Position numbers: made by a program. Shown piece after piece: positions 1-3,000 of a stretch of 8,563 nt of DNA (within the stretch, counting starts at the first letter, position 1; every line of letters begins with the position of its first letter). The stretch is from the IMG/VR virus record IMGVR_UViG_2529292904_000011, positions 1-8,563 of that record. One strand, written 5' to 3'. The stretch is from a virus (lineage: Duplodnaviria; Heunggongvirae; Uroviricota; Caudoviricetes).

Positions 1-3000
1 TCGACACAAAAAAGACCTGCTTATCTCGGTGGGTGATTTGGTTGATCGCGGTACAGAGAACGTCGAATGCCTGGAATTAATCACATTCCCCTGGTTCAGA
101 GCTGTACGTGGAAACCATGAGCAAATGATGATTGATGGCTTGTCAGAGCGTGGAAACGTCAATCACTGGCTGCTTAATGGCGGCGGCTGGTTCTTTAATC
201 TCGATTACGACCAAGAAATTCTGGTTAAAGCACTTGCTTATAAAGCAGATGAACTTCCATTAATCATCGAACTGGTGAGCAAAGATAAAAAATATGTCAT
301 CTGTCACGCCGATTATCCTTGTGACGAATACGAGTTTGGAAAGCCAGTTGATAATCAGCAGGTAATCTGGAATCGCGAACGAATCAGCAACTCACAAGAC
401 GGGATCGTGAAAGAAATCAAAGGCGCGGACACGTTCATCCTTGGTCATACGCCAGCAGTGAAACCACTCAAATTTGCCAACCAGATGTATATCGATACTG
501 GCGCAGTGTTCTGCGGAAACCTCACATTGATTCAGGTACAGGGAGAAGTCGCATGGGTATAAGAGAACTAAACCTCACCAAAGAACAGCACGATTGGCTG
601 AATGGCTGGCTTGAACTGTGGGGCGCATGGGTTTATTCAGGTCGTCTGGAAAAGCGCATGAGCAGCGTAATAGCGAAGTTCATGGAGAGCGTAGAGCCGG
701 GAAGAATTATGACAAGGCCAATGTGCAATGATGATGATGGAATGTTGATTTCTCAGGTCGTCGATTCCGTCATGTGCATTGACAAGAAAGCCTTTGGCAT
801 CCTCCTCAGCTACTACGCTCATGGTTCATCTAAGCGAGCAATTGCATCCTACTATCACGCGACTGCAAAGCCACGCAAGATGTGTGGACGTGGTGGCGAG
901 GGATGGAGAAAACCTTCACTGGCAACCTGTAGAAATGAAATTGACGACATCCTGAAAGCATCATTATTTGTTTTGTACCAACCAATGCAAAATGCTTTCA
1001 AAATGCGTAAACGTGTTGAGAAAGTTAAACACATTGCTGTTAAAAGTCTTGACATGCAATTATCCATTTGGCCATAATTAGAAGGTAAGCTGCCGTTAGT
1101 GACTCTTAAGTTGCAACGGTGGCTTTTTTTATTTGGGTCAGTCGTATAAAGGTCATTACGGAAGGCTGTTAACCTTCTTATCGTGGTTCGAGTCCACGCT
1201 GTCCCGCCAAACATGCTGGTTTAGCTCCAATGGTAGAGCAACTGACTTGTAATCATCAGGTCGCCAGTTCGATTCCGGTAGTCGGCACCATATGCGGGTA
1301 TCATATAATGGCTATTACCTCAGCCTTCCAGGCTGATGATGCGGGTTCGATTCCCGCTACCCGCTCCAGATTTATTATCAGTCTCGCTTCGGCGGGCTTT
1401 TTTCATATCTGCGCCACGTTCGGTGCATATCAACCATAAAGCTTTTCAGGGACGGGGTTACGGGATAGTCAGTGTGACTTTATCCGTAGGCTGGTTACCC
1501 ACTGGCGCAGGCTCTGCAGTTACCGCTGGGGCAGTACCTGTGGAAAGTGCACGCTTTGGGCTGACTGTCATCATGTTGTTTCTGGTGGTGGCAGTGGATT
1601 TCACCGGGCGTCTGATGTCGGTACTGGCTGATGGTGTGATGAAGCGTGGGATTGTGACATTACGGTGGTCGGTGATGAAAAGAAACAGTCTGAATAATGC
1701 TTGATTTTTTTACTTACTGTTTATTAGAAATACTGCCGTATAGCGAATCCCATGTGTAAGAGGTTATCAGCAGGCTGGAATACTGGGGGGCGCGGATTCA
1801 GGTGCTGATACTGAATTCACCGGGGCGGCCACCGGACCATGCATATATCAAAGTTGTGATTCTACTTATCATTTTCCTTGTGAGTTTTGGCTGCGCATGG
1901 CGCGGCCTTTTTTTACGATCTGCCACTGGCAGATGCTCATCCTGTGATTTTCTTCTGTTTCGGCCTTTTTTACTCTATTCCTGTGCATGGGAGAAATTCG
2001 ATGTCGATTAATCGTTACGATATTGTGCGGGCAGCATCGCCATCAGATCTGGCGGACAAGCTCACGCAAAAACTGAAAGAAGGCTGGCAGCCGTTTGGTA
2101 GCCCTGTGGCCATAACTCCTTATACCCTGATGCAGGCGATTGCAGCAGAAGGTGATGTGGTGGTCAGTGGCACAACTGAGCCGGAGTGGTACTACGTGGT
2201 CGTGCTGGCCGGACAGTCCAATGCCATGTCTTATGGTGAGGGTATTCCTCTTCCTGATTCATATGATGCGCCTGATCCGCGTATTAAGCAGTTGGCACGT
2301 CGCAGTACGGTGACGCCTGGCGGAGAGGCATGTGTATTTAACGATGTGATCCCGGCAGATCATTGTCTGCATGATGTGCAGGATATGAGTGTGTTCAGTC
2401 ACCCTGAAGCAGATTTAAGCAAAGGTCAGTATGGGTGTGTCGGACAGGGCTTACATATCGCCAAACGTCTGCTGCCGTATATCCCAAAAAATGCCGGGAT
2501 TCTGCTGGTTCCCTGCTCCCGTGGCGGTTCAGCATTTACAGCAGGGGCGGATGGTACATTCAGTGAAGCTACGGGGGCCAGCCAGAACTCTGCGCGCTGG
2601 GGAGTGGGTAAGCCGTTATATCAGGATCTGATACTGCGTACAAAAGCGGCACTGGCGAAGAATCCTGAAAATGTTCTGCTGGCGGTATGCTGGATGCAGG
2701 GTGAATTCGATATGACAAACGCTGGCTATGCTCAGCAGCCTGCAGCATTCCAGTCGATGGTGCAGCAGTTCCGTAGCGACCTTGCCGGTATGGCGGCGCA
2801 GTGTCATGGTGGAAGCGCTCAAAAAGTGCCGTGGATTTGTGGTGACACCACATACATCTGGAAACAGAAGTACGCCACACAATATGAGGCGGTGTATGGC
2901 GCTTATAAAGGAAAGGAAGCACAGAATATTTTCTTTGTTCCTTTTATGACAGGTGGCAGTGGTGAAAACACGCCCACGAATGAGCCGACGGAAGATCCGG

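Follow-up and report, generated by a model that had tools for sequence, protein, structure and literature searches.

A lambdoid prophage moron site very probably occupied by a decayed tciA-tciB cassette and an STnc100/PasD-family small RNA gene

Identity of the cargo slot

The DNA analysed here (the window) is a stretch of 8,563 nucleotides (nt) of a Caudoviricetes record (IMG/VR IMGVR_UViG_2529292904_000011, positions 1 to 8,563). Its 8.5 kb are late-region DNA from a lambdoid prophage. The subject of this report is the slot between its late tRNA genes and nanS-p, which in Shiga toxin (Stx) phages holds stxAB. This slot is very probably the late-operon moron site of the prophage, carrying a decayed tciA-tciB cassette followed by a small RNA (sRNA) gene of the STnc100/PasD family. 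It is largely ordinary and explained by known elements; it is neither a toxin scar nor an empty attachment site. The new items are limited to a deletion mechanism resolved to the base, a hybrid copy of the sRNA gene and a covarying loop helix.

Positions 1100-2100 are 99.8-100% identical to six complete Escherichia coli genomes and to no others (genome comparison). These are CB9615, RM12579, TB182A, DEC5B and USDA5905, labelled O55:H7 (5 of the 6), and 2013C-4465.

A preliminary description of the window equated 1404-1888 with the Stx cargo site. By position this is correct: the slot is the moron site downstream of Q, pR' and the tRNA genes and upstream of nanS-p. The site 3' of pR' has been described as a moron insertion site with convergent sRNA genes (Tree et al. 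2014, PMC4104026). The Stx moron site (stxAB between the tRNA genes and STnc100/AsxR, upstream of nanS-p) and the window share this location and its right boundary, formed by the sRNA gene and nanS-p; an Stx1 phage locus (L008) has the order stx1AB, STnc100, esterase. The cargo differs, being stx in one case and tciAB-derived in the other.

The same description found the slot unassigned and without a convincing open reading frame (ORF), which does not hold. It contains a tciB homologue and the sRNA gene (Pfam, PHROG, Rfam), and the Prokaryotic Genome Annotation Pipeline (PGAP) annotates a protein there, WP_001359471.1. The ORF of 122 amino acids (aa) at 1336-1704 had been set aside as not convincing; as a verdict on the whole ORF this goes too far, its 3' 165 nt being a DUF3927/TciB homologue. 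A protein-coding gene conserved by homology, named beforehand as the finding that would contradict the description, is thus present in the form of tciB.

Genes of the AgvB/AsxR type lie convergent to STnc100 in locus L001 (3431-3492, minus strand) and in L008 (3110-3169, minus strand). The minus strand of the window gave no such convergent AgvB/AsxR anti-sRNA in an Rfam scan, and the O157-type loci L004-L006 likewise showed none.

Loss of tciA by deletion between short direct repeats

In many relatives the same slot holds tciA (TerB family, 141-143 aa), which overlaps tciB (DUF3927, 50-55 aa) and is preceded by a non-coding leader (blastn, phages and E. coli genomes). The gene names are borrowed from tciA/B/C of phage P1. 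The families are PF05099/phrog_632 (TerB family) and PF13064/phrog_1470 (DUF3927). This layout was seen in phages PPyecE_EH1910, JLK-2012, Evi and Klebsiella phage 5 LV-2017, and in O55:H7 DEC5E, UTME-3, O157:H7 493/89 and ATCC 43886.

Two types of loci align with the window. Against the DEC5E/UTME-3 type, 1366-1514 (about 80%) and 1571-2010 (about 76%) align at 76-80% identity, and 1515-1570 replaces 484 nt (pairwise blastn). Loci of the ATCC 43886 type are 85-87% identical to 1505-1641, which covers tciA's 3' end and, after it, the 5' half of tciB. ATCC 43886 has two copies of GCGCAGGC 420 bp apart: the first belongs to the leader and precedes the tciA ribosome-binding site, the second comes 39 nt before the tciA stop codon. 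Only one copy is present in the window (1505-1512); leader DNA lies to its left and the 3' end of tciA to its right. One junction copy here and two flanking copies in ATCC 43886 point to a deletion between short direct repeats, and 1505-1512 is accordingly the junction of a 420-bp deletion between 8-bp repeats.

Judged by these alignments, the ancestor had the order terminator, leader, tciA (TerB family), tciB (DUF3927), as in many E. coli and Klebsiella phages. The 420-bp deletion between the two copies of GCGCAGGC took away the tciA ribosome-binding site and about 128 of the 141 codons. Left over are 12 tciA codons, together with the leader (1404-1512) and the tciB ORF (1540-1704). The deletion would have come from replication slippage or illegitimate recombination. 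The tciA remnant (1505-1543, plus strand; nucleotide and protein alignment) consists of the last 12 codons (AQALQLPLGQYL) and the former stop codon, mutated from TGA to TGG. Pfam finds no TerB domain (about 110 residues) in the 122-aa ORF, the last 12 tciA codons alone being left.

The opposite event, in which tciA was inserted and an 8-bp target became duplicated, was weighed and discarded: such an "insert" would stop 13 codons before the tciA stop codon. The insertion direction is excluded because the retained codons (AQALQLPLGQYL) sit in the full-length alignment of both diverged TciA types.

Loss of tciA is recurrent, as indicated by an independent deletion in E. coli SEC470 and by families of TciA fragments. 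In SEC470 (L010, 1293-1540, compared with L009), 354 bp are missing exactly between two ATATCCGCGCC 11-mers, of which the first belongs to the leader and the second to tciA; the loss covers the leader together with tciA's 5' half. An 11-mer common to leader and tciA was obtained in 13 of 2000 shuffles. The fragment families, phrog_9865 and phrog_3920 in PHROGs, are C-terminal.

In comparison with intact tciA-tciB morons, the window shares the position (after Q, pR', the tRNA genes and a terminator; before STnc100 and nanS-p or holin), the leader, the tciB start (GTG overlapping the tciA stop codon) and the C-terminal codons of tciA. It differs by the 420-bp tciA deletion and by deviant residues in the second hydrophobic segment of tciB. 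PADLOC assigned neither TciA nor TciB to a defence system, and a literature search on tciA, tciB and DUF3927 gave nothing relevant.

A scar was one of three readings offered in the preliminary description, and a scar there is, of tciA loss instead of toxin loss. That the slot was left by loss of stxAB from an ancestral Stx phage, the remainder being stx-flanking DNA, is scarcely credible. The slot does correspond by position to the stx site, and 1791-1843 is 87-89% identical to the DNA that immediately follows stx1B/stx2B in Stx phages. However, 1791-1843 is the core of the STnc100 sRNA, which is also found 3' of tciB in non-Stx phages and is a marker of the site's right boundary rather than of stx. 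Over its full length, the other DNA of the slot aligns with tciA-tciB loci, and the deletion junction falls between leader and tciA. Because the slot aligns throughout to tciAB and sRNA homologues, there is no space for stx-derived DNA; no sequence derived from stxA or stxB was found in the slot, matches to Stx phages being confined to the sRNA core. The second reading, an empty integration slot, is wrong. The third, a structured RNA, is taken up with the sRNA gene.

State of tciB

The tciB (DUF3927) ORF covers 1540-1704 (plus strand, 54 codons) and begins with a GTG homologous to that of intact loci (Pfam, PHROG, alignment). This GTG overlaps the former tciA stop codon. The product matches PF13064 with 42.4 bits (cut-off 25, E 7e-11) and phrog_1470 with an E value of 2.8e-17 over residues 2-52. 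At 54 aa it has the length of the family (about 50-55 aa, with two hydrophobic segments). The PGAP version in the CB9615 annotation (WP_001359471.1) is longer, with 76 aa at 1474-1704 (plus strand). Its start is probably over-extended, since its 22 additional codons at the N terminus are made of leader DNA and of the tciA remnant read out of frame. The Pfam match starts at residue 32 of the 76, and GTG 1474 lies at the loop/stem boundary of the predicted apical hairpin of the leader.

The gene is probably decaying after the loss of tciA, as suggested by lost coupling to tciA, a weakened Shine-Dalgarno (SD) sequence and charged residues in its second hydrophobic segment. Translational coupling is lost with the upstream gene whose stop codon overlaps the tciB start, now 12 codons without a stop. 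The SD sequence is GGAG in intact loci and GGGG in the window. Compared with ten relatives from three sublineages, the nearly invariant residues L6, L34, V35 and P44 are changed in the window only. The second hydrophobic segment gains K, R, T, R and S, reading MKRGIVTLRWS in place of LVxGIVVLLWP; its hydropathy is 0.72, against 1.96-2.45 in nine relatives. tciB would now be poorly translated or untranslated.

Two points weigh against decay. The ORF is intact in all six genomes, and the ratio of nonsynonymous to synonymous substitution rates is uninformative (54 codons, pairs 0.2-0.8). For these reasons decay is put no higher than probable, on the strength of the residue changes. Intactness is no evidence of selection, the six genomes being near-identical (99.8-100%).

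It is improbable that the slot is a working single-gene moron with a functional tciB, encoding either the 54-aa or the 76-aa protein. In its favour, besides the intact ORF and the scores above the Pfam and PHROG thresholds, the invariant residues D20, R24, M26, D31 and G32 are kept, and tciB without tciA is natural in phage 434 and in E2348/69 prophages. However, 434 and E2348/69 have another membrane-protein gene before tciB and the window has none. The change from GGAG to GGGG, the placing of GTG 1474 in a predicted hairpin that would sequester it, the four altered residues and a hydropathy below the lowest value in relatives (at least 1.96) also count against a working gene.

The small RNA gene

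The right part of the slot is a gene of about 177 nt (1738-1914, plus strand; Rfam, alignment) for an sRNA of the Hfq-dependent STnc100/PasD family (EcOnc27/EcOnc13). By alignment it is homologous to STnc100/PasD sRNA genes. The Rfam model of STnc100 (RF02076) matches 1708-1885 with 34.2 bits (E 1.3e-4, whole window; gathering score 47). Five relatives at the syntenic place score 105-145 bits; one of them is an Stx1 phage, in which the match begins 79 nt after stx1B. Synteny is kept: the gene comes immediately after the moron cargo gene, shares its strand and precedes nanS-p or lysis genes. STnc100 has been located 75 nt downstream of stx2B (PMC12370729) and partly overlaps the Hfq-bound EcOnc27 (PMC12711010). 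Zhu, Shabalina and Storz report that STnc100 is related to PasD, that pasD lies directly upstream of a sialate esterase gene and that pasA/pasC lie between the esterase gene and holin (bioRxiv 10.64898/2026.05.13.724894).

PasD1 corresponds to NC_011601 1060260-1060432 (PMC8550237, table S6). Its chimeras in a ligation-and-sequencing assay of RNA interactions (RIL-seq) cover 1060384-1060434, that is the last ~50 nt, and its targets carry the motif CUCACA(GG) (PMC8550237, supplementary fig. S5 and target-motif table).

On alignment, which took in phage 434 and E2348/69, the window gene is chimeric, with an STnc100-like 5' domain joined to a PasD-like 3' seed/terminator module. Identity in the 5' domain is 78% with the O157/UTME-3 type of STnc100 and 61% with PasD; in the 3' module it is 84% with PasD1 and 62% with the O157 type. 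The last 45 nt (seed, terminator hairpin, U-tract) match PasD1 at 44 positions. The PasD seed CCUUGUGAG lies at 1876-1884 (plus strand), in a single-stranded stretch next to the terminator on its 5' side, and its core UGUGAG (1879-1884) is complementary to the CUCACA(GG) of PasD targets. The published PasD probe target matches 1876-1899 at 23 of 24 positions, with no chance matches.

The "strong terminator" of the preliminary description, at 1889-1914 (plus strand), is real: the scan reports 1889-1907 plus a T-run, with an 8-bp stem of which 7 pairs are GC. It is made of GGCUGCGCAUGGCGCGGCC and U7. Its stem-loop is identical to that of PasD1 and its U-tract one U shorter. From the PasD1 alignment and the probe-target match, it is the terminator of the sRNA itself and, by likeness to PasD, its Hfq-binding 3' end.

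A promoter-like element on the plus strand (1701-1730) is proposed by homology: a -35 TTGATT (1701-1706), an 18-nt spacer with a T7 run and a -10 TAGAAA (1725-1730). TTGATT overlaps the tciB stop codon TGA (1702-1704). The positional homologue in E2348/69, TTGACT-18-TAAAAA, lies 7 nt upstream of the mapped 5' end of PasD1. The sRNA would be transcribed from TTGATT-18-TAGAAA or processed from Q-antiterminated late transcripts, would end at 1914 and bind Hfq via its terminator and U-tail, and would pair with mRNAs containing CUCACA(GG), as PasD does in enteropathogenic E. coli (EPEC). The reading as a structured RNA is right in substance for 1738-1914 and wrong as to an anonymous product of read-through, since the gene belongs to a known Hfq-dependent sRNA family and has its own promoter-like element and terminator.

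Compared with STnc100 (RF02076), the window gene shares synteny, strand, hairpins 3 and 4 and a core (1791-1843) that is about 89% identical; its closing helix and hairpin 2 are eroded, and its 3' end is of the PasD type, with neither the GCCCCUCUCCGGAGGGGC terminator nor the O157-type CCCUUUAUUUCC region. With PasD1/PasD2 of EPEC E2348/69 (Pearl Mizrahi et al. 2021; the homologue in enterohaemorrhagic E. coli is EcOnc13) it shares the order DUF3927, sRNA, esterase, pasA (minus strand), holin, as in prophage PP2. Seed and terminator stem-loop are identical, the promoter-like element is homologous and the length is 177 nt against 172-173 nt. The 5' domain, only 61% identical to that of PasD, is closer to STnc100.

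Hairpin 3 (GGAUUCAG/CUGAAUUC; 1794-1818, plus strand; Rfam alignment) has its stem at 1794-1801/1811-1818 and a 9-nt loop at 1802-1810. All 8 stem pairs are intact, and the stem carries compensatory changes across the family. Hairpin 4 (CCGG ... CCGG; 1820-1835, plus strand) has 4 bp against the 5 of the family (CCGGG/CCCGG). The 5' domain would have lost the closing helix and hairpin 2 and would keep hairpins 3 and 4 as well as the pairing of 1765-1772 with the hairpin-3 loop.

Several results count against a functional sRNA gene. The Rfam score is below the gathering score; a consensus promoter scan called pR' (1049-1078) and no sRNA promoter, so that the proposed promoter rests on homology with the region upstream of PasD1. 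Only 5 of the 8 pairs of the closing helix are kept and hairpin 2 is broken, and 1738-1914 folds no better than shuffled sequences (z = 0.02). The copy may thus be partly eroded, and it may be a non-functional relic. A dead gene, homologous to STnc100/PasD and no longer expressed or functional in a slot decaying as a whole, is nevertheless judged unlikely. It would also account for some 9 changes in the otherwise highly conserved GCAUGGUGAAUCCCCCUGUGCGGAGGGGC block and for a -10 of TAGAAA where PasD has TAAAAA. Against it, the part of PasD that engages Hfq and targets (the last ~50 nt) is kept at the 44 of 45 positions given above. Hairpin 3 is whole and is joined by an 8-bp loop helix, among the longest of its sequence class (7-9 bp). 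The fold z-score of PasD1 is itself only -2.07, and minimum free energy alone does not discriminate.

Other units of the Pas type occur nearby. The sequence of the PasA northern probe has an exact plus-strand match at 3998-4022, which places a pasA homologue on the minus strand between nanS-p and holin, as in PP2 of E2348/69. A second related unit, with its own terminator-like hairpin on the minus strand (GCCAGCG...CGCTGGC and a T-run), lies at about 3843-3900. The PasC probe has no match to this unit within 3 mismatches.

A covarying helix with the hairpin-3 loop

The 8-bp inverted repeat TATCAGCA/TGCTGATA (1765-1772/1803-1810), already noticed in the preliminary description, is beyond chance, conserved and covarying across the sRNA family. 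As RNA (plus strand), its 5' arm UAUCAGCA (1765-1772) lies just 3' of hairpin 2 and its 3' arm UGCUGAUA (1803-1810) in the hairpin-3 loop. On comparative grounds it is a real helix between the upstream segment and this loop, covarying across five classes.

The comparison used 40 distinct 5' domains from viral contigs, collected with a longer gapped pattern; their 5' block is shared by construction and the rest is free. A 15-base pattern (GCATGGTGAATCCNCC) against genome contigs gave chance matches in unrelated phyla only. The five classes are AUCAGC/GCUGAU, AAUGAC/GUCAUU, CUGGUG(U)/(A)CACCGG, CUGGCU/AGCCAG and AAUGAUC/GAUCAUU. Cognate arms form 6-10 contiguous pairs (mean 7.2), and cross-class combinations have a mean of 4.6. 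The combined shuffle p value is about 4e-5, with one representative per class and classes that are not fully independent. In an unfitted MAFFT alignment of 18 sequences, both sides change at 6 of the 7 pairs of the loop helix, the most of any helix. Covariation over the whole structure is 0.227 against 0.131 in shuffles (0 of 500 exceed it) and collapses when the partners are slid.

Since one arm is a hairpin loop, the pairing amounts to a pseudoknot or else takes the place of the nested fold; in PasD1, RNAfold includes it as a nested helix. The nested consensus of Rfam, as displayed by cmscan, lacks it (Rfam's pseudoknot annotation was not checked). Zhu et al. do not mention it, and no description of it was found. 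A tentative interpretation, held with somewhat less than even confidence, is that the STnc100/PasD family has an undescribed conserved tertiary or alternative helix (pseudoknot or switch) between the segment 3' of hairpin 2 and 6-10 nt in or next to the hairpin-3 loop, and that the window gene is a natural domain swap.

Two tandem 5' domains of the STnc100 type, with different loop-helix classes, occur in viral contigs L140, L147, L154, L167, L194 and L203 (about 470-480 nt apart) and in L191 (267 nt).

The leader of the tciA-tciB moron

The leader (1404-1512, plus strand; alignment, predicted fold) is non-coding and conserved. Upstream of tciA, E. coli and Klebsiella phages have DNA that matches it at 75-83%. 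A comparison of the two tciA types gives 85% identity for the leader and 52% for tciA. A long imperfect hairpin is predicted, with an apical hairpin AGTCA-GTG-TGACT (1467-1479). The homologues compared are L001, L004-L006, L009, L012-L014 and the window. RNAalifold on these nine copies found no compensatory change in the hairpin pairs; the sole change on both sides, among 41 predicted pairs, is in the stem of the upstream terminator. A scan of the window and its relatives gave no Rfam match for the leader.

The leader might itself be a functional structured RNA (a cis-regulatory 5' untranslated region or an sRNA processed from read-through) and have been retained for this reason after the loss of tciA. 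This is quite improbable. It would fit a conservation so much higher than that of the following gene, the presence in phages of both E. coli and Klebsiella, a long hairpin predicted in 9 of 9 copies and a fold z-score of -2.84 in ATCC 43886. The hairpin pairs without compensatory change and the lack of an Rfam match speak against it, as does SEC470, which lost the whole leader. Conservation could equally mark a mosaic recombination boundary, since it continues for about 30 nt inside tciA. In view of the RNAalifold result, nothing is claimed for the leader.

Repeats and short motifs of the slot

All the strings listed in the preliminary description are present where it placed them; their meaning varies. 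Its three direct repeats, GGTTACCCACTGG (1493-1505), CAGTTACCGCTGG (1517-1529) and CAGTACCTGTGG (1532-1543), carry little weight as such: triples of equal quality arise in 54 of 100 composition-preserving shuffles, and a repeat finder reports none. Repeat 1 is within the leader, in the 3' strand of its predicted hairpin; repeats 2 and 3 (1517-1543) are the tciA codons QLPLGQYL. These pieces come from two unrelated ancestral contexts, brought together by the deletion. The equivalents in ATCC 43886 are CAGTTGCCGCTGG and CAGTACCTGTGA; they are absent from the other tciA type. Weak triples of this kind occupy 6 loci in the region against a shuffle mean of 0.84, an excess attributed to coding composition rich in CTGG/GGTG.

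The four TGATG motifs (1613, 1629, 1637 and 1673) are tciB codons (CTG ATG, GCT GAT GGT, GTG ATG AAG, GTG ATG AAA). The T7 run (1705-1711) is the one inside the spacer of the conserved promoter-like element. The smaller complementarity GGAAT (1777)/ATTCAGG (1796) is not conserved: relatives have GGTAT, and ATTCAG pairs instead with CTGAAT (1811-1816).

Neighbouring genes

The window begins with a PP1-type phosphatase gene (29-562), Q (553-1077) and the pR'-like promoter (1049-1078; promoter scan). Between pR' and the first tRNA gene, 1079-1134 holds a hairpin and a T-run (GCCGTT...AACGGTGGC TTTTTTT), positioned like tR' or the short pR' transcript of Stx phages. Three tRNA genes follow: tRNA-Asn (1135-1209), a middle tRNA (1215-1287; Rfam, 47 bits) and tRNA-Gly (1294-1368). 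The middle one is missed by ARAGORN and unannotated in CB9615; set against the tRNA-Thr annotated in DEC5E, it shows a single C-to-T change at 1282, in the acceptor stem. Two D-arm positions also differ in tRNA-Gly. An intrinsic terminator 3' of tRNA-Gly (1383-1402, that is 1383-1396 plus a T-run; plus strand; terminator scan, alignment) is the left boundary of the cargo module, kept at the start of every tciAB module examined.

To the right of the slot lie nanS-p (2001-3842) and then the holin, lysozyme and Rz genes. Near the end of the window, an insertion-sequence-like transposase ORF (region 8160-8563) stands directly 3' of a terminase-like ORF (7788-8159) that appears truncated (as read from the sequence). 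If that ORF is truncated as it looks, the prophage would be defective. A full-length match to isrC (Rfam RF01387, 150 bits, 8212-8334) overlies the start of the transposase ORF.

Significance

An apparent mystery is removed: the "empty" toxin slot is a degraded alternative cargo together with a known kind of prophage sRNA gene. The deletion junction is mapped to the base and, together with SEC470, indicates that tciA is repeatedly lost through slippage between short repeats common to tciA and its own leader. The Rfam threshold misses this sRNA copy despite its nearly identical PasD seed and terminator; counts of such hybrids by annotation pipelines will therefore be too low in the O55:H7/O157:H7 lineage, in which these sRNAs bear on the regulation of virulence. 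The covarying loop helix gives the family a structural feature that can be tested. If the tentative interpretation given for it is true, prophage sRNAs at the right boundary of the moron site would evolve by swapping seed modules on a structured scaffold.

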